A DNA stretch of 49,688 nt from an uncultured Rhodospirillaceae bacterium (GCA_913044215.1 CAJWOT010000002.1:1-49688), one strand, 5' to 3'; shown: positions 27,835-40,917, numbered from the stretch's first letter. Notes: generated by a model not told the origin, from the letters alone. A program made the numbers and translations.

Positions 27835-28512
27835 TTATCGCGGAGGCGTATCCAAGGTCGCGCGGGTAAAGGTTTCGATGTAATCGAGCAGCCGGTCGGA
27901 CGCCGCGCATGCGCGAATCCGGTCCCCATCGCCGATAGCCCGAGCTACTTCCGCGTGAAGCCGTGCGCAGAGGGGTAGGTCCGCCACCTCTTGATAGTGG
28001 ATGAACCAGAACCGCCGCGACAGGGGCTGCATCAATTGCATCGCCTTGGCCGCAAATCCGTTGCGCGCCGCATCCACCGAGAGATCGTTCAACTCCCGGT
28101 CCAGCCGCAGGAAGGATCGGTCGTCATCGGTTTCCGCGGCATGCGCCATTTCGCGAGCAATGCCTTGAAATCGCTCTCGTTCAGCCTCGGTCGCCCGCTC
28201 CGCGGCATTTCCCGCGATAAGCCGCTCGACCTCCCGGCGCACTTCCAGGAGCTGCAATTGCGCCCGGATATCGATTTCCGAAATCAAGATTCCCCGGCGC
28301 GGCAGAACCACAACCAACCCCGCATGCGCCAGACGTTGCAGCGCTTCGCGGATCGGCGTACGGCCGATGCCGACATGTTCGCTCAATTGCGCTTCCGAGA
28401 CGATGCTGCCGGGTTTGAGCCGCAGCATCACGATTTCCTCTTCGATCCGTTCATAGGCCAAATCGGTAAGCGAGGCATATACTTCGGTATCGTTGGCGGA
28501 GGCGATCGCCAT
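27835..28512 (-). CDS. GntR-family transcriptional regulator (FadR/FCD subfamily)
   Basis: The winged HTH is LKPGSIVSEAQLSEHVGIGRTPIREALQRLAHAGLVVVLPRRG, followed by an all-helical FCD-like C-terminal domain. The ATG is at 28510-28512. Confidence 0.88.
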   Translation of the reverse strand: MAIASANDTEVYASLTDLAYERIEEEIVMLRLKPGSIVSEAQLSEHVGIGRTPIREALQRLAHAGLVVVLPRRGILISEIDIRAQLQLLEVRREVERLIAGNAAERATEAERERFQGIAREMAHAAETDDDRSFLRLDRELNDLSVDAARNGFAAKAMQLMQPLSRRFWFIHYQEVADLPLCARLHAEVARAIGDGDRIRACAASDRLLDYIETFTRATLDTPPR

Positions 28513-28530
28513 GGGTGTGTCCTTGTCGCT

Positions 28531-28542
28531 CTGATATATCAG
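28531..28542. promoter_or_regulatory. Perfect 12-bp palindrome CTGATATATCAG, candidate GntR operator
   Basis: It is the only strong palindrome in the 106-bp divergent GntR/PhyH intergenic region. It lies 19 nt from the GntR start codon. Confidence 0.4.
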
Positions 28543-28618
28543 CAATATAGTTCAGGGATTATCGCCGCGAAAGCGCCGACAGGTTAAACGCCGACGTCAC
28601 GACCGAGGAACGACCATC

Positions 28619-29560
28619 ATGTATCCCGAACGCGTCCAGGACCATGCTCCGAAAATTCTGACCCAGATGCAACGGGACTTCTATTTCGAGAACGGCTATG
28701 TGATGCTCGAGTCCGTCGTGCCGATGGAAACCATCGAGCGGCTTCGCGCACTGACCGACGCGATGGTGGATCGCAGCCGATCGGTCGTCACATCCGACGC
28801 AATTTTCGATCTCGAGCCTGCCCACAACGCCGACACCCCACGCTTGCGCCGCCTGTCGTCGCCCGTCGCACAGGATCCGCTTTACTGGGAGTTCGCCTCT
28901 GAGTCGGTGATCGCCGACATCGCGGCCGATCTGGTCGGCCCGGACGTCAAATTCCATCACTCCAAGCTCAACTTCAAATGGGCCGAAGGGGGCGAGGAAG
29001 TGAAGTGGCATCAGGACATCCAGTCCTGGGCGCACACCAATTACAGCCCGCTGACCATCGGCACGTATCTGTACGATGTCGGCCCTGAGCAAGGACCGCT
29101 GGGCGTCATTCCCGGCAGTCACAAAGGCCCCCTGTTCAGCCAGTACAACGACAAGGACCAATGGACCGGCGATATTACCGACCGGGATTTGGAGACGGTG
29201 GCACTCGACACGGCGGAATATCTGATGGGACCGGCCGGATCGGTCACGGTGCACAATTGCTGCACCATCCATGGGTCGAAACCGAATCTGTCGGATCGGG
29301 GCCGGCCGTTGCTGCTCAACGTCTACTCGGCAGCCGACGCCTTCACCTACATGCCCAACCCCTTAAATACCGAGTTCGCCGGCGCCATCGTGCGCGGCAA
29401 CGCGGTCCGCGAAGCCTTCATCGACCCGCGTCCCTGCGTCATGTCGCCGGATTGGTCGAAAGGCTACACCTCGCTCTTCGCCTTGCAGCAAAAGGAAGAA
29501 TGGGGCGAGGATCAGATGGACCGGGTCGAACGGCAGCACCGCGAGACGGTCAGCGGCTGA
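28619..29560 (+). CDS. Phytanoyl-CoA dioxygenase (PhyH) family Fe(II)/2-oxoglutarate-dependent oxygenase
   Basis: FYFENGYVMLESVV is a PhyH-type N-terminus. The HxD facial-triad context is VKWHQDIQSW, and the distal His is in VHNCCTIHGSKPN. Confidence 0.8.
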   Translation: MYPERVQDHAPKILTQMQRDFYFENGYVMLESVVPMETIERLRALTDAMVDRSRSVVTSDAIFDLEPAHNADTPRLRRLSSPVAQDPLYWEFASESVIADIAADLVGPDVKFHHSKLNFKWAEGGEEVKWHQDIQSWAHTNYSPLTIGTYLYDVGPEQGPLGVIPGSHKGPLFSQYNDKDQWTGDITDRDLETVALDTAEYLMGPAGSVTVHNCCTIHGSKPNLSDRGRPLLLNVYSAADAFTYMPNPLNTEFAGAIVRGNAVREAFIDPRPCVMSPDWSKGYTSLFALQQKEEWGEDQMDRVERQHRETVSG

Positions 29561-29794: not shown

Positions 29795-31138
29795 CTAAAA
29801 GCCCCGGAACAGAATCGTCGGCAACCAAAGTGCTAGATTCGGCATCGCCAGCACGAATGCCAAAACCACCATGTGCAAGAAGATAAACGGCACAACCCCT
29901 TTGTACATGTGCATCAGAGTGATCTCCGGTGGGCTGATACCGCGCAAGTAAAAGATAGCGGGCGCCATCGGCGGTGTCAGATAGCTTGTCTGGATCATGA
30001 TCAGGAAGCAAATAGAGAACCACACCTTCACAGAACCCGGATCCAGTTCGTAGAACGGGAAACCAACAATGATAGGCATAGCGATCGGTACGACGATTAG
30101 CATCAATGAGATCAGGTCCAACACGAAACCAGCAGCGAACGCCAACAATAGTAAAATCGCCAAGGTTTCCCAGTTGTTCAGCTGAGCCGCCTGCATCAGT
30201 TGTTGAACGCCAATCAACCCACCGGCAGCGGTAAATACACCCGCAAACATTGTGCCGCCGATCAGGATCAACAGGATCATTGCCGTAATTACGACAGTTT
30301 TATAAAGCGCTTCCTTCATGACCGCCACGGTAAGTGTGCGGTAGCACAAGCACATAATGACTGATCCCACAGCACCGCATCCAGCGGCTTCAGTCGGGGT
30401 CGCAAGGCCTCCTAAGATAGAGCCCAGGACCGTTGCGATCAGTAACGCCGGTGGGATAAGGGCGGTCGCCGTCATAGTCAGCTTCCGCATGAAGGGCGGA
30501 TCGTTTTCGTCTGCGGTTACGCGCGGGCCGTCTTCGGGCCGGATTATGCAGCGACAAATGATATAGATGATATAGCTGCCCGCAAGCATCAGGCCTGGCA
30601 GGATCATACCGGCGAACAGATCGCCGATTGACACGTCCGCGACGGGACCGAGAATGACCACGACAACCGACGGCGGGATAATGGTACCCAACGATCCACC
30701 GGCGCAGATCGTGCCGGAAATCAGCGACTTGTTGTAGGCGTATCGCATCATCACCGGAATCGCGAGTAGCCCAACGACAGTTTCGGTTGCGCCTACGATA
30801 CCCGTGGATGCAGCGAACACGACACATAGCAAAACCGTGCCAACGGCCAAGCCGCCGGGCAATCGTCTCGTCCACATATGTATCGCTTCAAATAATCGTT
30901 CAGCAACACCCGAACGCTCAAGCAACGATCCCATAAATATGAATAACGGAACAGCGCCTAGCACGTAATTTGAAGCGACATCGTCTACTTTCGCTAAGTA
31001 AAGTGCAACTGCGGCTTCATTGAAGCGAATAACCCCCCAAACAAGTGCAACACCCATCAGGGAAAACGCCACAGGAAATCCCATAAACAAGCAAAATAGC
31101 AGCGCCGGGAACATCCATAACGCAAATTCGACACTCAT
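29795..31138 (-). CDS. TRAP transporter large permease subunit (DctM family)
   Basis: MSVEFALWMFPALLFCLFMGFPVAFSLMG... is about 447 aa and polytopic. The ATG at 31136-31138 overlaps the dctQ stop by 1 nt (TAATG). Confidence 0.9.
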   Translation of the reverse strand: MSVEFALWMFPALLFCLFMGFPVAFSLMGVALVWGVIRFNEAAVALYLAKVDDVASNYVLGAVPLFIFMGSLLERSGVAERLFEAIHMWTRRLPGGLAVGTVLLCVVFAASTGIVGATETVVGLLAIPVMMRYAYNKSLISGTICAGGSLGTIIPPSVVVVILGPVADVSIGDLFAGMILPGLMLAGSYIIYIICRCIIRPEDGPRVTADENDPPFMRKLTMTATALIPPALLIATVLGSILGGLATPTEAAGCGAVGSVIMCLCYRTLTVAVMKEALYKTVVITAMILLILIGGTMFAGVFTAAGGLIGVQQLMQAAQLNNWETLAILLLLAFAAGFVLDLISLMLIVVPIAMPIIVGFPFYELDPGSVKVWFSICFLIMIQTSYLTPPMAPAIFYLRGISPPEITLMHMYKGVVPFIFLHMVVLAFVLAMPNLALWLPTILFRGF

Positions 31139-31839
31139 TATTCGAAGCCTCCCGGCAGATCTGGTTCTGGTACAACACGGCCCATGAGGACCAGAATGCA
31201 CTTCAAAGCTTCAACAACCACTTGAAGGGTGAACAAATAGAAACCGAAGGTGAACGTAAATTTAAACGGCCATATCAACGGGTTCCAGGCCGATTCCCCA
31301 GATTGCTCGTTAAATTTATAGGCCTCGATAAAATATTCAAAAAGGCCCCACGAAACCCAAATAATCATTGGTAATAGTAGGAAAATATACCCTGTCAGAT
31401 CGATTAACGCCTTCTGCTTCTCAGAAACACTATCGAAAAAGAAATCCACCCGGATGTGGCGGCGGAGCTGCGTGCAATAGGCAATCCCAAGCATAAGACT
31501 GGTGCCCATCATCATGTAAGATACTTCAAATGCCCAGAAGGTCGGCGCTCGGAATGCGTATCGCATAATAACTTCGTAGACGATTAGCATTGCAAGAAAT
31601 GGAATTATACAGCCAGCAATAATTCCAAAAACTTTCACCATCTTTTCGATTGGTCGAACGAAATTAAATACATCACGCCCGATAAACGCATGTGCTAAGC
31701 CCCACAAGGCATAAAGAGCCGTAATGTAGAAAATTCCGACTAATACTCCGAGAAACCAGCCGTGTCCCTTTGGTTCACCCGAAAGGATCAACGAATGCGT
31801 TTCCGACCATACGCTAAGTACCGCGTCCATTACCCACAT
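31138..31839 (-). CDS. TRAP transporter small permease subunit (DctQ family, long form)
   Basis: It has four or more hydrophobic spans and lies between the DctP and DctM genes. The start could be 31839 or the ATG at 31830. Confidence 0.8.
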   Translation of the reverse strand: MWVMDAVLSVWSETHSLILSGEPKGHGWFLGVLVGIFYITALYALWGLAHAFIGRDVFNFVRPIEKMVKVFGIIAGCIIPFLAMLIVYEVIMRYAFRAPTFWAFEVSYMMMGTSLMLGIAYCTQLRRHIRVDFFFDSVSEKQKALIDLTGYIFLLLPMIIWVSWGLFEYFIEAYKFNEQSGESAWNPLIWPFKFTFTFGFYLFTLQVVVEALKCILVLMGRVVPEPDLPGGFE

Positions 31840-31917
31840 CCAATTTAGAATTACATAAACGGAATAAAGGGGGAGCGCTCTTCACGCTCCCCCTAAATTG
31901 TTCTTCTAATAATCGGT

Positions 31918-32994
31918 TTACTTAAGTATGTCGCCGATTGCCGTGCGCGTACCCGGACCTGAACGCATCTTCGAATATACGCTCATGTCATGCTGGAACT
32001 TACGCTGGTGGTTCAATGCCTTCTTGAACCATGCATTGCCCTCGATCTGCTTGTCCGCCCACTCGTTGCCGGCCTTCTGAGCGGCATCGATGAAGGATTG
32101 CTCCAAGCGAAGCATAGTATTGCCACCCTTCGCCATACGACGATACGCGAACAGATCGTTATAGGCGTGATTACGCCATGCACGGAATGTCCGCAGTTCA
32201 CCCGCCAGTTCGATTAAATGCTGGTCGCGTTTAGAAATTTTATCCCAAGCTTTTTTGTTGAATTCACACTCTTGTGTGGCACCCGGTTGATGCACGCCCG
32301 GGAAAATAATGTATTTCGCAATTTTGTGGAAACCTACCGGCTCATTCACCGAAGGCGAACTCCACTCCGTGGCGTCGATAACACCGCGTTCCAGCGCCGG
32401 ATAGACTTCCGCACCTGGCAGAATAACCGTTGTGGCTCCAAGGGAACCACCTACCTCTGCCCAAGCACCAGCCGTCCGCTGTTTAAGGCCTTTGTACTCG
32501 GCGAGATTGGTAACCTTGCGTTTAGAGTGCAGAAATATTTCTGCTGGGAAGGTACCACATGGAATCGACACAACACCGAACTTTTCCATCCGATATTGTT
32601 TCCACAGGTCAACGCCGCCAGCTTGATATAGCCACAAGAAAAACTCTTCTTCCGTCAAGCCGCCAACATAGCCACCGAAGATAACAGTCGTCTTATCGAT
32701 CCCCCAGTCGTAGCCCATCCAATTATGGCCAGCCTGGCCTACACCGGATTTAACAGAATCCGTAACCTTAAGAGCCTTACCCAGCGTGCCTGCCGGGAAA
32801 ACCGTAATGTTAACTCGACCCTCCGTCAGGTCTTTCACGACTGCTGCAAAAGATTTTGCGTCTTCAAGAGGCTTACCGCCGCCCCAAGGTGTCGCCATGC
32901 TCCAGTTGGCTTGTGCGAGAGCCGAGCCGGCCATCGCCATCATGCCCAGACCGGCGGCCGCGCCGACCGCCGTTTTGATGACATTTTTTAACAT
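31918..32994 (-). CDS. TRAP transporter substrate-binding protein (DctP family)
   Basis: The signal peptide is MLKNVIKTAVGAAAGLGMMAMAGSALA, followed by NWSMATPWGGG.... GGGAGGA lies upstream of the ATG at 32992-32994. Confidence 0.85.
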   Translation of the reverse strand: MLKNVIKTAVGAAAGLGMMAMAGSALAQANWSMATPWGGGKPLEDAKSFAAVVKDLTEGRVNITVFPAGTLGKALKVTDSVKSGVGQAGHNWMGYDWGIDKTTVIFGGYVGGLTEEEFFLWLYQAGGVDLWKQYRMEKFGVVSIPCGTFPAEIFLHSKRKVTNLAEYKGLKQRTAGAWAEVGGSLGATTVILPGAEVYPALERGVIDATEWSSPSVNEPVGFHKIAKYIIFPGVHQPGATQECEFNKKAWDKISKRDQHLIELAGELRTFRAWRNHAYNDLFAYRRMAKGGNTMLRLEQSFIDAAQKAGNEWADKQIEGNAWFKKALNHQRKFQHDMSVYSKMRSGPGTRTAIGDILK

Positions 32995-33433
32995 TTGGTC
33001 CTCCCTGTTATGGACTGGTTTGAGACTAAAGGTAGATTCTGCTGCCTCCACCTCATTCAGGAAATCACTTGCAGGCCCACCTCAATCCCTGGCCGCGAGT
33101 GTTCACCATTGCTGAAAATTGGTCAACCTTGTCGCGCTCTTCCCAATGCCAGCCCATTTCTTATTCCAAAATTCGGGGCCGCCCGGTGCGCGACGCACTC
33201 TCCCCTGTGATTATTTGCCCGTACAATACAAGTGACATATGAGAACGACAAGACGTTAGCACGAAACCATTTTTATCAGTCTGAAACCCTGCCTGCGCCC
33301 CGCAATCGCAAATTTGTTACAGCTCGGCGCGACAGTGTTTAAAGTCTGTTCACCAGCTACGGCCCTACGCGCCATATGGAGAACGGCCGGAACGGTGCCC
33401 AGAAAAGGCGACGTTCAACCCCGAGGAGGCGAT

Positions 33434-34540
33434 ATGAACGACAAGGCGAACACCGCCAGCGACATCCGGATGAAAGGCAGCGGTTACTATTCGCTCGCCA
33501 CGACCGGCGCGAAGATCGTCATCGACAGCGCCATGCCCCTGATCCGCGGCGCCCTGGACAGGATGGATATCCGAGATGACGGCTCCGTCTTCGCGATGGC
33601 CGATATGGGATGCGCCGACGGCGGCACCTCGATCGATATGGTTGGCCAAGCCTTGCGGTACGTGCGTGAGAAGGCACCGTCCCGACCTCTGACCATGACC
33701 TATACCGACCTGCCGCGGAACGATTTCAGTCAGGTCTTTCACAATGTCCACGGCCTGACCGACCTGCCAGGCTACGCGCCGGATATCGACAATCTCTACG
33801 TCTTCGCGTCCGGCACCTCGTTCCATCAGCGCATCTTCCCGGACAATGCGCTTAATTTTGGCTTCTCCGCGACCGCCTCGCATTACATCAGCGAACGCCC
33901 CGGCCCGATCACAAATCACGTCCATATGGTCGGTGCCGAGGGGGCGGAGCTGGCCGCTTATACGGAACAGGGCCGCGCCGACTGGGAGCGCATTCTCGGG
34001 TGCCGCGCAGCGGAGCTGGTGCCCGGCGGGGGGTTGGTCTTGCTCAATTTCTGCCGCGACGAGAAAGGCCGCTATCTCGGCGGTACCGAGGGCGTGAACA
34101 TGTTCCACACCTTCGATCGTCTGTGGCGGGAGATGGCCGAGGACGGCGCGATTACCATGGCAGAATATGAAGCCACGGTCTTCCCGCAATATTACCGCGA
34201 CATCGATGAATGCAGCGCACCGCTGACCGATCCCAACTGCCCCGTGCACAAAGCCGGCCTTCGCCTAGATCACATCGAAACCAAGGTGATCGATTGTCCC
34301 TACCGGCTCGACTACGAGCAGCACGGCGACGCGGCCAAATTCGCCCGGGACTATATCCCGACCCTGCGCTCCTGGAGCGAAAGCGTCTTCTTCGCCGGCT
34401 TGTCAGAAGACCGGCCGCTGGAAGAACGCGCCGAACTTATCGATCACTATTTTGATTCCTACGGGACCTTCGTGCGCGAGAACCCGACCGGCCAAGGCAT
34501 GGACTATGTCCACACCTACATGGTCATGCACAAGGAGTAA
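33434..34540 (+). CDS. SABATH-type (Methyltransf_7-like) SAM-dependent carboxyl methyltransferase homologue
   Basis: Collinear matches to plant SAMT/JMT motifs run over the full length:
- RMKGSGYYS (plant HMKGGxGxxSY)
- ADMGCADGGTS (ADLGCSSGPN)
- TDLPRNDFSQVF (NDLPGNDFNxxF)
- SGTSFHQRIFPDNALNFGFSATASHYIS (GSFYGRLFPxxSLHFxxSSYSLHWLS)
- AAELVPGGGLVLL (EEVVPGGRMVLT)
- FPQYY (IPQYTP)
GAGGAGG lies upstream of the ATG at 33434. Confidence 0.8.
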   Translation: MNDKANTASDIRMKGSGYYSLATTGAKIVIDSAMPLIRGALDRMDIRDDGSVFAMADMGCADGGTSIDMVGQALRYVREKAPSRPLTMTYTDLPRNDFSQVFHNVHGLTDLPGYAPDIDNLYVFASGTSFHQRIFPDNALNFGFSATASHYISERPGPITNHVHMVGAEGAELAAYTEQGRADWERILGCRAAELVPGGGLVLLNFCRDEKGRYLGGTEGVNMFHTFDRLWREMAEDGAITMAEYEATVFPQYYRDIDECSAPLTDPNCPVHKAGLRLDHIETKVIDCPYRLDYEQHGDAAKFARDYIPTLRSWSESVFFAGLSEDRPLEERAELIDHYFDSYGTFVRENPTGQGMDYVHTYMVMHKE

Positions 34541-34554
34541 CCGCGCGGCCCCGC

Positions 34555-35415
34555 TCAGCCCGCGGCTATCTTCTCCGCCACGCGCACGGTGCGATACATC
34601 GTACGCAATACGGGCTTTTCGATCAGTTTGTTGTCGAGCACCACAAGACCGCTGTCGCCTTCCTCGAAGGCGGCGATAACCCGGCGTGCGTGGGCAACGG
34701 CCTCTTCAGATGGGCTGAAGATCGCGTTCAACGGTGCGATCTGCTTGGGATGGATAGACCCCTTGCCGGTGAAGCCGAGCTCCTCAGCAAGTTGTGCCTC
34801 GCGTTCCATCCCTTCCATATCGTCGAGATCGAGATAAGGCACATCGATCACATCGAGGCCCGCGCCGGCGGCGGCATGAACGACACGCGAGCGGGCATAA
34901 AGCAACGTCTCCCACCTGTTCGCCGCGCGCAACTCCGCCGCCATATCAACGCCACCGAAGAACATCGCATCGATCCGGCCACTCGATTGGGCGATGTCGT
35001 AGGCGGCTTCAAGGCCCGCATTGGTCTCGATGATAACGTGCAGGCGGGTCAGCATATCGTGCTCGGTCAGCAGTTCGTCCAGTGCCTTCACCTCATCCGG
35101 TGACACGACCTTGGGCAGCATCAGCGCCGGCGGCGCTGTCACGGCGGACACTGCCGCCTGCACGTCGGCCATTCCGTCGGCCGTGCGCAGGCAGTTGATG
35201 CGGACGATCCGTTCGACGCCGTCTTTCGCCTGCGGCGTCTCGAACAGCTTCATCGTGCGCTCGCGGGCGTCCTGCTTATGGTTCGGCGCGATCGCATCCT
35301 CAAGATCGATGCAGACAATATCCGCGCCCGTTGCCAACGCCTTGGGAAACATGTCCGGACTGACGCCGGGCATGAATATAAAGCTGCGGCGCGGCTGAAA
35401 CTCTTCGTTGTCCAT
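34555..35415 (-). CDS. HpcH/HpaI aldolase / citrate lyase beta (CitE)-like acyl-CoA lyase
   Basis: RRSFIFMPGVSPDMFPKALATGADIVCIDLEDAIAP is a CitE/malyl-CoA lyase-type N-terminus. The protein is 286 aa. Confidence 0.8.
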   Translation of the reverse strand: MDNEEFQPRRSFIFMPGVSPDMFPKALATGADIVCIDLEDAIAPNHKQDARERTMKLFETPQAKDGVERIVRINCLRTADGMADVQAAVSAVTAPPALMLPKVVSPDEVKALDELLTEHDMLTRLHVIIETNAGLEAAYDIAQSSGRIDAMFFGGVDMAAELRAANRWETLLYARSRVVHAAAGAGLDVIDVPYLDLDDMEGMEREAQLAEELGFTGKGSIHPKQIAPLNAIFSPSEEAVAHARRVIAAFEEGDSGLVVLDNKLIEKPVLRTMYRTVRVAEKIAAG

Positions 35416-35418
35416 GCT

Positions 35419-36618
35419 CTACAATCCGAGAACGGCTTTGGCGATGACGTTGCGTTGGATCTCGTTCGACCCGCCATAGATCGATGCGGCGCGCCGCAGC
35501 AGCCGCTCGCTCATCAATCCGACGCTGTGGTCCGGGCCGACCGGCGGTTCGTTCGCGTCGGGCCGCACCATGCTGGCATCGTAGGGCAGCGCGTAGAAAC
35601 CCATCGCTTCGACGAGCAATTCGTTAAGCTCTTGTTCGATGGTTGTCCCGCTGATCTTGAGGGTCGACGATTCCGGCCCCGGATTTCCGCCGCCGGCAAG
35701 CGCCGACATCATCCGCAAATTGGTGATCTCCAGCGCGGAGAGCGAGACCTCGACTTTCGAAATACGCGACTTGAACCCATGATCGTCGAGCAACGAACCG
35801 CCCTCGGCACGCTCGATCTCGGCGATCTGTTTCAGCTTCTTCACCTTCTGCTTCGACTTGCCGACCCCGGCGATCCCGGTCCGCTCGTGACCCAGCAGGA
35901 ACTTGGCGTAGGTCCAGCCTTTGTTTTCTTCGCCAATGCGGTTCTCTACCGGCACCCGCACATCGTCGAAGAAAACTTCGTTCAAGTAATGACCGCCATC
36001 CATTGAGATAATCGGCTTCACCGTCAGACCCTTGGTCTTCATATCGATCAAGAGGAAGGTGATGCCTTCCTGCTTCTTGACGTCAGGGTCGGTCCGGGTG
36101 AGGCAGAAGATCAAATCCGCCTTATGCGCCTGCGAGGTCCAGATCTTCTGGCCGTTGACGACATACTCGTCACCATCCAGTACCGCGCGGGTTTGCAGCG
36201 AGGCCAGATCCGAGCCCGAGCCCGGCTCCGAATAGCCTTGGCACCACAACTCGTCGCCGGAAAGAATGCTCGGCAGATAGCGGTCTTTCTGCGCCTGAGT
36301 GCCGAAAGTGTAAATAACCGGCCCGACCATGGTAATCCCGAATCCGCTGATCCGCGGCGCATCATTGGCGCTGTATTCCTCTTCGAAGATATGACGCTGG
36401 GTTACAGACCAACCGGTGCCGCCATACTCCACCGGCCAGGCCGGCGCGATCCAGCCACGCTTGTACAGCGCCTTGTGCCAGGCAACCATGTCGGACTTGG
36501 AGACGTAGGACGGCGTCCGCCGCACGACCTCGCGCACCGTTTCCGGCAGGTTTTCCTTGAAGAAAGCACGCACCTCCTCGCGGAACGCCAAATCTTCGTG
36601 GCTGAACAACATGTCCAT
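35419..36618 (-). CDS. Acyl-CoA dehydrogenase family protein (PimC/FadE-like large-subunit type)
   Basis: WCQGYSEPGSGSDLASLQTRA, NGQKIWTSQAHKADLIF and ISMDGGHYLNEVFFDDVRVP are present. The protein is 399 aa. The gene lies 3 nt upstream of the CitE-like gene. Confidence 0.85.
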   Translation of the reverse strand: MDMLFSHEDLAFREEVRAFFKENLPETVREVVRRTPSYVSKSDMVAWHKALYKRGWIAPAWPVEYGGTGWSVTQRHIFEEEYSANDAPRISGFGITMVGPVIYTFGTQAQKDRYLPSILSGDELWCQGYSEPGSGSDLASLQTRAVLDGDEYVVNGQKIWTSQAHKADLIFCLTRTDPDVKKQEGITFLLIDMKTKGLTVKPIISMDGGHYLNEVFFDDVRVPVENRIGEENKGWTYAKFLLGHERTGIAGVGKSKQKVKKLKQIAEIERAEGGSLLDDHGFKSRISKVEVSLSALEITNLRMMSALAGGGNPGPESSTLKISGTTIEQELNELLVEAMGFYALPYDASMVRPDANEPPVGPDHSVGLMSERLLRRAASIYGGSNEIQRNVIAKAVLGL

Positions 36619-36663
36619 GGGATCGTCTCCTTCGAACTCGGTCTATTCGTAAATTAGCAGCCG

Positions 36664-37617
36664 TTACTCGGCGGCATAGGCAAGAATCGGCTGACCAAGT
36701 AACGAGCTGGATTCCCGACCGTCAACACCCACCGGCACGTCACCCACCAAGGTGACGCGATAAAGCTGGCGGTCCGCATCAATCTGAAAGATATCGGATG
36801 GCGCCAGATGGCAGGTCGAGCGATTGTCCCAAAAGGCGATATCACCGGCCTTCCAGCGGAACCGCACCGTATAATCCTGACGCACCGCGTGTTCCCACAA
36901 CAACTCCAGCAGTTGCTCGCTCTCGCGCGGCGCCAGCCCGACGACCTCTTTCAAAAAGGACGGGCTAACATAAAGGGCCCGTTCGCCGGTTTCCGGATGC
37001 ACACGGACCAGCGGATGTTCGCTCTCCTGTCCCCGGGTGCGCAGCATCTCCTTATAATCTTCGGAGGATTCCGCCCCCTGCGGCGGCGCGAATTTGTGCA
37101 CGCCGCGTAGCGTGTCGACGAACCCCCGCAGCGTGTCCGACAGACCGTTATAGGCCGCAACCAAATTGGTGAATTGGGTATCGCCGCCATAGGGTGGGAT
37201 GTTCACACCGCGCAGAATCGATGCCGCCGGCGGGTTGATCGCCGCCGTGATGTCAGCGTGCCAGCCGGTCCAGGGTTTCTCCATCTTCGCGCCGGTCTTG
37301 TAGCGATTCGCCTTGCGGTGCTTGGCGATGGAGTAAATCTCCGGATAGTCCTCTACATTGCCAAACACGGCATGCCCGATCGTCAGTTCACCGAACTGTC
37401 TTGCGAAATCCAGGTGCTGATCGTGATCGAGATGCTGATCGTGGAAGAAAATCACCTTCCATTTCAGCAGAGCGGCACGAATCTCCTTCACCGCCTCGCT
37501 GGACAGCGGTTTTGTCAGATCGACACCACCGATTTCCGCACCGATATTAATCGTGACCGGATTGATTTCGATTTCCTTCGGTGCATCGGCCAATTCGAAT
37601 GCTGCCACGTTGCTCAT
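36664..37617 (-). CDS. TauD/TfdA-family Fe(II)/2-oxoglutarate dioxygenase, paralogue 1
   Basis: The HxD motif is in WTGWHADIT, and the distal His is in DNRSTCHLAP. The start is the ATG at 37615-37617 (MSNVAAFELAD...). The upstream part of the 410-aa track ORF is read-through into paralogue 2 in another frame. Confidence 0.85.
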   Translation of the reverse strand: MSNVAAFELADAPKEIEINPVTINIGAEIGGVDLTKPLSSEAVKEIRAALLKWKVIFFHDQHLDHDQHLDFARQFGELTIGHAVFGNVEDYPEIYSIAKHRKANRYKTGAKMEKPWTGWHADITAAINPPAASILRGVNIPPYGGDTQFTNLVAAYNGLSDTLRGFVDTLRGVHKFAPPQGAESSEDYKEMLRTRGQESEHPLVRVHPETGERALYVSPSFLKEVVGLAPRESEQLLELLWEHAVRQDYTVRFRWKAGDIAFWDNRSTCHLAPSDIFQIDADRQLYRVTLVGDVPVGVDGRESSSLLGQPILAYAAE

Positions 37618-37633
37618 ATCGTCTGTCCTCCTT

Positions 37634-38551
37634 CTATTCCGCCGCCCAGGCGGTAATCGGGTCGCCCTCGATCGCCTTTGAAGGCGTGCCATCGACCCCG
37701 ACCGGCACGTCGCCAACCAAGGTGATACGGTAGAGCTGCCGCTCGCCTTCGACTTCAAATATATCGGTAGGCGCGTGATGGCATGCCGCCCGATTGTCCC
37801 AGACAGCGATATCGCCATCGCGCCAGCGGAAGCGCACCGTGTATTCCTGGCGTACGGCATGCTCCCACAACATTTCCATGAAATACTGGCTTTCACGCGG
37901 CGTCATGCCAACGATTTCCTTGAGATAGGACGGGCTGACATAGAGCGCCCGCTCGCCGGTCTCCGGATGCACCCGGACGATTGGGTGTTCGCTGACCAGT
38001 TTGCGGCGCTTGAAATAATCTTCATAGGCTTTCGTGCCGGGCTCCACCGCAGGCGCCGCCGTGTAATGAAGCCCGCGCAATGTATCGACGAAGGCGCGCA
38101 GCGTTTCCGACAATCCATCGTAAGCTGCCGCCAGATTGGTCCATTGCGTGTCGCCGCCATAGGGCGGCAGGGTCACCCCTCGCAGGATCGATATGGCCGG
38201 CGGGTTGATCGCCGAAGTGATGTCGGCGTGCCAGCCCGTCCAGGGCGCGACCATCTTCGGAGCACCGAACTGGTTTGCCGCGCGTTTCTTGGCGATCGAA
38301 TAGATTTCCGGATAGCCGTCGATATGGCCGAACACCGCGTGACCGATGGTCGGCTCGCCCAGCTGTTTGGCGAAGGCGAGGTGGCTGTCGTGGTCGATGT
38401 CCTGATCGTGGAAGAAAATGACCTTCCATTTCAGCAACGCCGCGCGAATTTCCTTGACGGTATCCGCCGACAGCGGCTGGGACAGATCGACGCCACCGAT
38501 TTCCGCGCCGATATGAATGCTGAGGGGGTTAACGTCGATGCTCGACGCCAT
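37634..38551 (-). CDS. TauD/TfdA-family Fe(II)/2-oxoglutarate dioxygenase, paralogue 2
   Basis: It has the same motifs (WTGWHADIT, DNRAACHHAP). A hand-aligned N-terminal block has 51 of 64 residues identical to paralogue 1. The 3' end is 16 nt from the paralogue 1 start. Confidence 0.88.
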   Translation of the reverse strand: MASSIDVNPLSIHIGAEIGGVDLSQPLSADTVKEIRAALLKWKVIFFHDQDIDHDSHLAFAKQLGEPTIGHAVFGHIDGYPEIYSIAKKRAANQFGAPKMVAPWTGWHADITSAINPPAISILRGVTLPPYGGDTQWTNLAAAYDGLSETLRAFVDTLRGLHYTAAPAVEPGTKAYEDYFKRRKLVSEHPIVRVHPETGERALYVSPSYLKEIVGMTPRESQYFMEMLWEHAVRQEYTVRFRWRDGDIAVWDNRAACHHAPTDIFEVEGERQLYRITLVGDVPVGVDGTPSKAIEGDPITAWAAE

Positions 38552-38662
38552 GGGTCTTACTCCTGAAACTTACTGAGACCATGAGAACCTTTAGCGCAAT
38601 GCTAGTGCGAACAGCCGTGCTTCACAATTGTTGCGGCTAAAAAGTCGCAGCAAAGCAACAAA

Positions 38663-40036
38663 CTAGCCCTCGATCCATGCGTCCAGCGCGTCGTCATCCT
38701 CGCCCGGCACATGCACGACCGTGAAGGTAAAGGGGTCGCCGCCGAGAGGTTTCGTCGCGTCGAGACCCATCTTATCGACCCGCCCATCCGTCCCCGACGG
38801 GTCGAGACGGGACCCCTGTGCGCCGGCGACAACCATCAAATCTTCCGCCGCCTGAAACCGGGTCGCAACGGCCCATTCGACCGCATCCGGATTGAGGATA
38901 TCAACATCCTCGTCGACAATGGTGACCTGCTTGATATCGGCGTGTCCGGCGAAAGCGCCCATCATGATGTTCTTCGGCTCGCCGTCCCATCGTTTGGCAA
39001 TCTTGACGACCAGATGATAGCGGCAGACCCCGCCACGCGAGAGATGAACATCTTTGACGCTCGGAAATGTCCGCTGCAGATGGGCGATGAGTGACGCCTC
39101 TCGCGGGATACCGCCGAGCAGCAGATGTTCCATCGCCGCCGGCACGATGGTGTGGAACAGGGCGTCCTCGCGCCGTGTGATCGCGTCGATCACGATGACC
39201 TGACGCTTGCCCACCGGTCCATAATATTGCGGGAATTCGCCGAACGGCCCTTCCTCCTCGCGCACTTCCGGCAGCAATCGGCCTTCGATGACGATCTCCG
39301 CCTCGGCCGGCACGCGCACATCGTTCGTCTTGCATTTTACGACCGGCAAGGGCCCGCCATGCAGGGCACCGGCGACTTCCAATTCGTCCCGGTCTATTGG
39401 CAGGATCGCCTGCGAGGCGAGCAGCGTCAGCGGGTCGACGCCGACCGCGATAGCGACCGACAGCGGTTCGGCCGCTTCCTCTGCGGCATCGTAGAACCGA
39501 TGCAAATCTCGCGGCAGTATCAAGATACCAAGCCGGTCAGGCCCGTTGATCTGTATCCGGTTGATCGAGACGTTCTGCACGCCGGTTTTTGGATTGGCCG
39601 CGATCACCAGCCCCGCCGTGATATAGGCACCGGAATCATGTTCGTTATGCACCGGGATCGGCAGTTCATCTCGAATATCAAAACCACTTTCGATGACGAC
39701 CTGCTGCACAGGCGCGGATTCAGATGCGACTTCGGACCAGGGCAGCGGGTGCAGCACGGCATTGCGATAGCGGTCGAGCATATCGCTTTCATCCACCCCC
39801 ATCGCTTCCGCGATCCACGGCCGGGACGCGACCAAACCCGAAATCACCGACAATTCATGACCGCCCGGCGCGGGAAACAATGTCGCCTTCTCGCCGTCCA
39901 GACGTTTGGCGATCGCCGCCAAGGTGAATTCCAGCGGTACATACGGTTTGGTCCGAACCAACCGGCCAGTCTCGTCCAACCGGTCGAGCCATGACCGCAA
40001 GGTCGTGAAGGGGGCATTCGGTCGCGCAGTTGTCAT
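38663..40036 (-). CDS. UbiD-family (prFMN-dependent) decarboxylase
   Basis: Full-length UbiD architecture is present: LRSWLDRLDETGRLVRTK, NVSINRIQ, EGPFGEFPQYYG, RYHLVVKI, and MGLDATKP near the C-terminus. The protein is 457 aa. Confidence 0.88.
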   Translation of the reverse strand: MTTARPNAPFTTLRSWLDRLDETGRLVRTKPYVPLEFTLAAIAKRLDGEKATLFPAPGGHELSVISGLVASRPWIAEAMGVDESDMLDRYRNAVLHPLPWSEVASESAPVQQVVIESGFDIRDELPIPVHNEHDSGAYITAGLVIAANPKTGVQNVSINRIQINGPDRLGILILPRDLHRFYDAAEEAAEPLSVAIAVGVDPLTLLASQAILPIDRDELEVAGALHGGPLPVVKCKTNDVRVPAEAEIVIEGRLLPEVREEEGPFGEFPQYYGPVGKRQVIVIDAITRREDALFHTIVPAAMEHLLLGGIPREASLIAHLQRTFPSVKDVHLSRGGVCRYHLVVKIAKRWDGEPKNIMMGAFAGHADIKQVTIVDEDVDILNPDAVEWAVATRFQAAEDLMVVAGAQGSRLDPSGTDGRVDKMGLDATKPLGGDPFTFTVVHVPGEDDDALDAWIEG

Positions 40037-40818
40037 GCCTGGTCCGCCTTTCTCGTCTCGATTTCCGCTGGCACGTGCCAGGCGAGCGTCTCAGCGAATG
40101 CGGCCACCGCGCCGACGACGAACAAGGTCGGTGCCGACAGTTCGGCTTTTGCGATCTCGCCGGGCAATCTTGCCAAGGTCGCACTGATCACCTTCTGCGT
40201 CGGCAATGTGCCATTCTGGATTGCGGCTGCCGGCGTATCCTCCGGCAAGCCCGCTTGGATCAGGTTGTTGCAGATCCGATCGATCTTCATCAGCCCCATA
40301 TAGATGACCAGGGTCGTATCCGGGTCAGCGAGCCGGTTCCAGTCCAATTCCAGTTCGCCATTGTCCGCCATGTGGCCGGTGACGAAATGCACGCCCTTCG
40401 CAAGCCCGCGATGGGTGAGCGGGATACCGGCATAGGCAGCGCAGCCCATTGACGCGGTGATCCCCGGTACGATCTCGAATGGAATCCCATGTTGCGCCAG
40501 GTGCAATGCCTCTTCACTGCCGCGTCCGAATATGAAGGGGTCCCCGCCCTTCAGCCGCACCACGCGCCGGCCGCTGCGTGCCTGGGTCACCAAGACGCCG
40601 TTGATCGTTTCCTGCGGCATGTAATGCTTGCGCGACGCCTTGCCCGCGAAAATCCGCTCCGCATCTACCGGCACCAAGGCGAGGACGCTTTCCGAAACAA
40701 GCCGGTCATAGACCACGATCTCGGCTCCCTGCAGTACGCGCAAGGCCCGCACGGTCAGCAGATCCGGATCGCCCGGCCCCGCACCGACGAGAAAGACCCG
40801 TGGTTCGCTAGCGTTCAT
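40033..40818 (-). CDS. cobA: Uroporphyrinogen-III C-methyltransferase (SUMT)
   Basis: VFLVGAGPGDPDLLTVRALRVLQGAEIVVYDRLV and VVRLKGGDPFIFGRGSEE are present. The start is the ATG at 40816-40818. Its TGA overlaps the UbiD ATG (ATGA at 40033-40036). Confidence 0.88.
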   Translation of the reverse strand: MNASEPRVFLVGAGPGDPDLLTVRALRVLQGAEIVVYDRLVSESVLALVPVDAERIFAGKASRKHYMPQETINGVLVTQARSGRRVVRLKGGDPFIFGRGSEEALHLAQHGIPFEIVPGITASMGCAAYAGIPLTHRGLAKGVHFVTGHMADNGELELDWNRLADPDTTLVIYMGLMKIDRICNNLIQAGLPEDTPAAAIQNGTLPTQKVISATLARLPGEIAKAELSAPTLFVVGAVAAFAETLAWHVPAEIETRKADQA

Positions 40819-40917
40819 TCTAAGAGAATTCCCTCGAAAAACGCGACGATAGTACACGGGCTAATGCAGCGACCCAACAGGCGTTCGCGTGGAAATGCAT
40901 TGTGAAGTCGCTGTCTA

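Follow-up and report, generated by a model that had tools for sequence, protein, structure and literature searches.

A predicted SABATH-fold methyltransferase of marine Alphaproteobacteria with an apparently rebuilt acceptor pocket

What does a methyltransferase of the SABATH family act upon once the residues that hold the substrate carboxylate in its plant relatives have been replaced? This question is raised by a gene at 33434-34540 on the + strand of a 49,688-nucleotide stretch of DNA from an uncultured Rhodospirillaceae bacterium (GCA_913044215.1 CAJWOT010000002.1:1-49688; hereinafter the window, always at its full length), the product of which we denote MT. In the literature, SABATH enzymes are treated as essentially plant-specific carboxyl methyltransferases (PMC10193983). 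Bacterial SABATH enzymes are already known, and the homology is in itself unsurprising; what is new is a large, conserved marine bacterial group (hundreds of species, including SAR116-type and sponge-associated Rhodospirillales) in which both carboxylate-recognition residues are replaced. Under the reading that we prefer and that, taken as a whole, appears to us slightly better than an even bet, MT is predicted to be a stand-alone, S-adenosylmethionine (SAM)-dependent small-molecule methyltransferase of the SABATH fold, and its acceptor would probably be a small, polar, amino-acid-derived carboxylic acid.

Family, cofactor site and acceptor pocket

The open reading frame (ORF), as read from the sequence, starts with ATG at 33434, ends with the stop codon at 34538-34540 and encodes a product of 368 amino acids (aa); a longer ORF starting from TTG at 33314 is not supported because the homologues begin at the methionine of ATG-33434. 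The only significant Pfam match of the product is PF03492 (Methyltransf_7), which scores 123.5 bits where the gathering cut-off is 29.8 (E 1.4e-35), with residues 47-366 aligned to positions 9-334 of the 335 in the profile; no other methyltransferase family was matched, and NCBIfam holds no model for the protein. Among the sequences of solved structures in the PDB, phmmer placed FAMT of Mycobacterium marinum first (5f2k, E 1.5e-21), followed by Clarkia SAMT (1m6e, E 1.5e-15) and then by IAMT, LAMT and the tea and coffee N-methyltransferases.

The structure prediction tells the same. An AlphaFold2 model of MT built on 27 orthologues (mean predicted local distance difference test score, pLDDT, 86; predicted template-modelling score, pTM, 0.85) was compared to the PDB with Foldseek, and the top 29 chains are all SABATH enzymes, with E from 6e-26 to 9e-18 and template-modelling (TM) scores of 0.64-0.81 (0.81 for FAMT 5f2n, 0.73 for SAMT 1m6e), over 360-390 aligned columns that include the helical cap; class I methyltransferases outside the SABATH family reach only E>=4e-10 and TM<=0.44. 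Thus, the sequence-only reading, which had proposed whole-length SABATH homology from a set of sequence blocks and had suggested a profile search and a fold comparison as checks, is borne out on both counts, by the confident PF03492 match and by the presence of the cap. All the listed blocks are found in MT, as MKGSGYYS, ADMGCADGG, DLPRNDF, GTSFHQRIFP...FGFSATASHYIS, VPGGGLVL and FPQYY.

The same reading regarded bacterial members as sparse and framed the gene by its plant relatives, and in these respects it needs to be corrected. Of the 8000 candidates that were scored, at least 1930 are homologues at E<=1e-3; the top 120, which serve below as the close-homologue set, are all at least 56% identical to MT. 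The relatives form 2037 clusters of 50% identity at E<=1e-3, 965 at 1e-10 and 218 at 1e-30, and they occur in 322 species-representative genomes; one bacterial member, FAMT of M. marinum, has even been solved with substrates. Among the carriers, marine Rhodospirillaceae, SAR116, Thalassobaculaceae, Hyphomicrobiales and sponge-associated metagenome-assembled genomes (MAGs) predominate, next to some Gammaproteobacteria; Pelagibius sp. Alg239-R121 (L080) is a carrier in culture. The nearest locus, in a Rhodospirillaceae MAG, encodes a protein 96% identical to MT, and an identity of about 60% is held across orders. Microbial or protist-type sequences make up the best 150 cluster representatives, and the plant structures, at E 1e-15 or weaker and about 20% identity, are distant cousins. 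The ratio of non-synonymous to synonymous substitution rates (dN/dS) between MT and four orthologues is 0.05-0.10, and MT evolves under purifying selection. MT accordingly belongs to a large orthologous group, mainly of marine Alphaproteobacteria, without a characterised member; we found no paper in the literature that characterises this clade, recognised by the GA/HY signature described below.

Residues of MT were mapped by a phmmer alignment to SAMT 1m6e, with which the protein is in register. The SAM-binding residues are kept: Asp57, Asp92-Leu93 (Asp98-Leu99 in SAMT) and Ser129-Phe130 are present in MT and are invariant in the 27 orthologues. SAM is predicted to be bound via the same residues as in the plant SABATH enzymes. 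By profile, fold and SAM site, MT is a member of the SABATH/Methyltransf_7 superfamily.

On the acceptor side, SAMT Gln25, which hydrogen-bonds the substrate carboxylate, corresponds to Ala26 of MT, preceded by Gly25, and SAMT Met150-Trp151 corresponds to His150-Tyr151 (within SHYIS). So aligned, MT lacks both residues that mark the carboxyl-methyltransferase subclass of the SABATH family, the N-terminal Gln and the Trp of the S-x-x-W-L-S motif. In addition, SAMT Tyr131 is His131 in MT, and the Gly of DLPGNDF is Arg95. The combination of Gly25-Ala26 and His150-Tyr151 (GA/HY) is found in 117 of the 119 close homologues in which all four positions are aligned; Gly-Ala occupies positions 25-26 in all 119 close homologues with a residue there, and Tyr151 is present in 118 of 120. 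To place this signature in the wider microbial clade, we examined the 150 best representatives of the 50%-identity clusters, counting those with an aligned residue at each position. His occupies position 150 in 131 of 135; at position 151, Trp (109) outnumbers Tyr (24); and position 26 is Cys in 38, Ala in 37, Gln in 20 and Pro in 6, such that Gln is kept in 20 of the 105 aligned representatives. By these counts, the near-invariant His150 and the loss of Gln appear most distinctive for the microbial clade, and GA/HY is, on the alignment evidence, the derived state of one orthologous group.

The acceptor pocket thus aligned appears to have been rebuilt, with Gly25-Ala26 in place of the Gln clamp, His150-Tyr151 in place of Met/Gln-Trp, and Arg95 in the DLPxNDF loop. 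That Tyr replaces the clamp Trp and that no N-terminal Gln is aligned had both been noticed from the sequence alone, and both observations stand, the latter as a Gly-Ala pair fixed in the orthologous group. The altered acceptor that these observations were taken to suggest fares less evenly: the residue changes are real, but the change from Trp to Tyr is weaker evidence of a new acceptor than was implied because the wider clade has both residues at this position and His150 is near-invariant. Tyr151 may retain the clamp function because Tyr can donate a hydrogen bond.

Genomic partners and the likely acceptor

ORFs were called in 80 related loci and in the window and clustered, and the recurrent clusters were annotated. 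The most consistent genomic partner of MT is a PhyH-family Fe(II)/2-oxoglutarate (2OG) dioxygenase, which is found near MT in 18 of the 81 loci; in 10 lineages, it lies directly 5' of MT in the same orientation, 2-29 bp away, and genes for a Glyoxalase_3 protein and an SDR usually come before such adjacent pairs. The window copy (28619-29560, + strand; PF05721, E 1e-28) lies 3.9 kb upstream of MT. It is 45-52% identical to the MT-adjacent copies, and the MT proteins of those loci are 56-61% identical to that of the window, so that PhyH seems to diverge in step with MT. The facial triad of PhyH (H131-x-D133, H218) and the 2OG-binding R229 are invariant in 20 sequences, and the closest solved structures are those of ectoine hydroxylase and leucine hydroxylase.

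Between PhyH and MT, in the window and its close relatives, lies an operon for a transporter of the tripartite ATP-independent periplasmic (TRAP) type, dctP-dctQ-dctM (29795-32994, - strand; Pfam DctM, DctQ and DctP). The GC content of this operon is 0.46-0.53, compared to 0.59-0.61 around it; because the GC content is low and PhyH and MT are adjacent in 10 other lineages, the operon appears to be an insertion that split an ancestral PhyH-MT pair, and part of the GC dip may perhaps be due to membrane-protein genes. DctP, encoded at 31918-32994, is closest to TakP and to lactate-binding and keto-acid-binding proteins (E 1e-37 to 1e-40). One of its relatives, PDB 4yic, may have been solved with bound picolinate, to which we give no weight. 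DctP belongs to the subgroup that binds monocarboxylates (2-oxo or 2-hydroxy acids), which we count in favour of a carboxylate substrate.

Among the other recurrent neighbours of MT are a gamma-glutamyltranspeptidase, directly 3' of MT in nine SAR116-like loci; Ldh_2 dehydrogenases, M19 dipeptidases, hydantoinase/oxoprolinase A and B, and a DAO flavoprotein; molybdenum hydroxylase subunits, a CoA ligase and an enoyl-CoA hydratase; and, in a few loci, N-methyl catabolic genes, MTTB and DMGDH-like. These neighbourhoods are suggestive of small amino-acid-derived or nitrogen-containing acids. An amino-acid-derived substrate in particular would be in line with the DAO, Ldh_2, M19, gamma-glutamyltranspeptidase, hydantoinase/oxoprolinase, MTTB and DMGDH-like neighbours and with the fused relatives discussed below.

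Under the preferred reading, the carboxylate of this acid would be held by His150/Tyr151 and possibly by Arg95 or the backbone of Gly25-Ala26, and the methyl group would be transferred by direct SN2 attack. MT would act in the same pathway as the co-conserved PhyH-type dioxygenase and, in the window lineage, the substrate would probably be supplied by the adjacent TakP-like TRAP transporter. Several observations weigh against this scheme. The neighbourhoods are heterogeneous, and many of the 80 loci have no recurrent partner at all; therefore the pathway assignment is soft and the neighbourhood evidence suggestive. The MT gene of the window is not co-transcribed with PhyH or with the TRAP genes, and the link between TRAP genes and MT is confined to close relatives and to two loci in which DctP is just 32-34% identical. 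Finally, MT lacks the Gln clamp by which SABATH enzymes that methylate carboxyls are defined, and this weakens the case for ester formation.

With regard to the atom that would be methylated, a carboxylate oxygen, giving a methyl ester, is our tentative choice; it falls short of an even chance and is only marginally ahead of nitrogen. We lean towards O-methylation because the nearest characterised relatives are all carboxyl O-methyltransferases and because hydrogen-bond donors (Tyr151, His150) remain. Other acceptor atoms, including a hydroxyl installed by PhyH, take the probability that is left after oxygen and nitrogen.

The strongest rival is an N-methyltransferase that would modify a ring or alpha nitrogen beside the carboxylate of an imino or N-heterocyclic acid (picolinate, pipecolate or proline-type), yielding a betaine-type, homarine-like product. 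SABATH enzymes can N-methylate nicotinate, as coffee trigonelline synthase does. The lost Gln, the invariant His, the domain fusions and a BCCT link give this rival a substantial share, and we regard it as a genuine, if lesser, possibility. In the pocket, loss of the Gln clamp and its replacement by Gly-Ala would leave room beside the SAM methyl group, and the His that is near-invariant at position 150 (131/135) occupies what we take to be the position of His160 in coffee DXMT. The MTTB and DMGDH-like genes near MT in some loci point in the same direction.

The remaining support for N-methylation comes from distant relatives. Among representatives 30-42% identical to MT, many are multidomain proteins in which an ELFV amino-acid dehydrogenase and a DAO domain are fused to Methyltransf_7 (for example, L081:5676-9188 from Shewanella surugensis, L082:7084-11906, and P0186 from Porphyridium purpureum). 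Their ELFV domain is closest to Phe/Leu/Trp dehydrogenases, and their DAO domain belongs to the monomeric sarcosine oxidase (MSOX)/NikD/MTOX family. The fused relatives carry a GC/HW signature and form a sister clade to GA/HY, with hosts that include S. surugensis, the red alga P. purpureum, a diplonemid, a Pavlovales haptophyte, the diatom Thalassiothrix antarctica and an amoebozoan. The metagenomic operon of L082 runs in the order ELFV dehydrogenase, DAO-MT fusion, BCCT transporter, that is, it ends in a betaine-type transporter. With this arrangement, the clade is tied to the oxidation of an amino acid and, more weakly, to a product of the betaine type. However, the fusions and the BCCT link are found in relatives just 30-42% identical to MT, outside its orthologous group, and the BCCT adjacency comes essentially from one locus, L082. 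Moreover, the window locus looks oriented towards catabolism and uptake rather than biosynthesis. For the fused relatives, we also weighed a dimethylsulfoniopropionate (DMSP)-type pathway, but an imine-oxidation route seems to fit better, since the flavoenzymes of the MSOX family act on amines and not on 2-hydroxy acids.

A bolder form of this idea, which we think unlikely, is that the GA/HY and GC/HW clades supply the methylation step that is still lacking genes in the synthesis of a zwitterionic metabolite abundant in the sea. NikD-type enzymes carry out a four-electron oxidation of a cyclic imine to picolinate. By a chemically economical route, the fused proteins would turn an amino acid into a cyclic imine, oxidise this to picolinate and N-methylate the latter to homarine. 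In marine Alphaproteobacteria, SAR116 among them, MT of the window, paired with PhyH and the TakP-like TRAP importer, would carry out this N-methylation, or yield a hydroxylated variant, with a precursor taken up from outside. The DAO domain, however, scores alike against sarcosine oxidase (98 bits) and NikD (91 bits), and so does not single out the formation of picolinate. In the literature, we found no biosynthetic gene for homarine; the published homarine catabolism operon, homABCDER, contains no methyltransferase, and no link between it and the MT loci was found. If it is true that the fused relatives make a betaine-type osmolyte, their genes would serve as markers for the production of one of the main constituents of marine dissolved organic matter.

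Another rival, distinctly unlikely in our view, makes PhyH and MT a tailoring pair, in which PhyH would hydroxylate an amino-acid-like substrate and MT would O-methylate the new hydroxyl, rather than the carboxylate, to give a methoxy product. The tight conservation of the PhyH-MT pair, with the 2-29 bp gaps in 10 lineages, the amino-acid or ectoine hydroxylase activity of the solved PhyH relatives and the loss of the canonical carboxylate clamp all agree with such a pair, but most MT loci have no PhyH, the two window genes stand 3.9 kb apart in separate transcription units, and we know of no SABATH-fold enzyme that methylates an aliphatic hydroxyl. A recent lateral gain from plants, or the decay of a SABATH gene into a non-functional relic, has nothing in its favour beyond the family name, PF03492 being best known from plants, and is refuted with very little room left by the flank-like GC content (0.61 in the gene, 0.59-0.61 in the flanks, with no sign of the lateral origin that had been raised), the dN/dS of 0.05-0.10, the invariant SAM site, the presence in 322 species genomes and the microbial or protist-type best clusters.

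Whichever of these readings applies to MT, identification of the substrate would give a function to thousands of genes that are annotated as hypothetical or by similarity, and would widen the range of reactions catalysed by a scaffold that biocatalytic esterification already employs.

Local layout and wider neighbourhood

The MT gene is monocistronic. The Shine-Dalgarno sequence GAGGAGG (33423-33429, + strand) is located 4 nt 5' of the ATG, and orthologous loci have a purine-rich sequence of the GGAGG/GGGAG type at the same position. The likely start of dctP is the ATG at 32994 on the - strand, with GGGAGG ahead of it, which leaves a divergent spacer of 439 bp (32995-33433) between the two genes. 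The layout given in the sequence-only reading, a monocistronic + strand gene with a GAGGAGG signal, divergent from the TRAP operon across some 440 bp, is therefore correct.

An alignment of the spacers from seven loci revealed two blocks that are conserved among loci in which MT is 81-96% identical. The first, at approximately 33097-33129, contains TTGGTCAACC, a GGT-N2-ACC inverted repeat; the second, at approximately 33223-33255, reads ACAATACAAGTGACATAT...GACAAGAC. These blocks are possible operator sites for a GntR/FCD-family regulator encoded at 27835-28545 on the - strand, divergent from PhyH. The orthologue of this regulator in the nearest locus (L001) matches Pfam GntR and FCD, and its cluster (c30) adjoins PhyH in the window and in L001, L004 and L011; the protein is a candidate regulator of the locus, with a putative link to MT. 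Rfam gave no riboswitch or RNA family, whether searched with the full window at gathering thresholds or with the spacer at E<=1, and scans for promoter and terminator consensus sequences returned counts at chance level, with nothing usable.

On the 3' side, the MT transcription unit is bounded by a convergent gene for an HpcH/CitE-like CoA-ester lyase (34555-35415, - strand; Pfam HpcH_HpaI), the stop of which lies 14 bp past that of MT; against the NCBIfam RipC-like model, the protein scores 246 bits, under the cut-off of 375. This gene opens a cluster at 34555-40857 on the - strand that encodes the HpcH/CitE-like (RipC-like) lyase, an acyl-CoA dehydrogenase, two tandem TauD-family dioxygenases, a UbiD-family decarboxylase and a tetrapyrrole-methylase-family protein. 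The cluster is syntenic with MT only in close relatives, which for the lyase gene are those at 81-96% identity.

A further neighbour, absent from the window, is a protein of about 570 aa that is encoded near MT in 21 loci and directly 3' of it in 11, where the stop and start codons overlap or stand a few bases apart (L014:9104-10774; also L025, L031, L034, L037, L049, L063, L068 and P0282). This protein has no match in Pfam or NCBIfam, nor in the PDB by sequence or by fold; its AlphaFold2 model, a confident one (pLDDT 84, pTM 0.88), has a best PDB fold match at E 0.14 and TM 0.10. It has at least 8000 homologues, all annotated as hypothetical. Elsewhere, the conserved module Peptidase_M19, 570-aa protein, DUF3726 stands behind ABC or TRAP transporters, SAR324 included. 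One of the loci, L049, is on a 370-kb contig (JBNOAI010000005.1) labelled Leptospira interrogans strain LS0056, with the gene order dctPQM-DAO-M19-Ldh_2-MT-570aa, identical to that of L037, a locus from Hyphomicrobiaceae; contamination or mislabelling of the contig is the probable cause, rather than a spirochaete gene. The intermediate relatives P0121, P0122, P0131 and P0165 are on short or gene-poor contigs, and their contexts are uninformative.

Comparison with known systems

Of the characterised enzymes, FAMT of M. marinum (5f2k, 5f2n, 5f2o) is the closest to MT: it has a bacterial SABATH fold, is the best match in the PDB by both sequence and structure (TM 0.81 over 361 columns) and shares the SAM-site motifs. 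However, the two proteins are only 22-23% identical, and the FAMT pocket has Gln31 and Gln154-Trp155, the latter pair where MT has His150-Tyr151. The FAMT-like relatives, a separate minor group among the representatives, keep the N-terminal Gln (IQ/QW), whereas MT has Ala. The substrates of FAMT are hydrophobic fatty acids, whereas for MT small polar acids are suggested by the genomic context. Given the low identity and the differing pocket residues in the alignment, MT is not a FAMT orthologue.

The plant carboxyl methyltransferases (SAMT 1m6e, IAMT 3b5i, LAMT 6c8r, GAMT 8wwq) share with MT the Pfam family, the fold (TM 0.64-0.73) and the residues Asp57, Asp-Leu and Ser129-Phe130, but they are about 20% identical to MT and differ from it in the clamp residues. 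MT comes from a marine bacterium and has no link to plant hormones or volatiles. The plant N-methyltransferases (coffee XMT/DXMT 2eg5/2efj, tea CkTcS 6lyh, yerba mate IpCS3 8uzd) likewise resemble MT in fold (TM 0.67-0.75) and demonstrate that the scaffold can methylate ring nitrogens. At 16-20% identity, however, they represent a derived plant lineage that keeps the Trp, and are no closer to MT than the carboxyl methyltransferases. Against this background, His150 and the loss of Gln in MT appear compatible with N-methylation, without being diagnostic of it.

The fused proteins (WP_248942631.1 of Shewanella surugensis and KAA8497474.1 of Porphyridium purpureum) belong to the same microbial SABATH subclade as MT, at 31-37% identity, and have in common with it the motifs GxYS..T.G, ADGGTS, FSATAMH[WY]LS, NF..D..G..LG, FP[QN]YYR, CPY, T.R[ST]WS and MDYVH. 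Unlike MT, they carry GC/HW rather than GA/HY and EDQP rather than TDLP, are multidomain proteins, and are found in algae and protists as well as bacteria.

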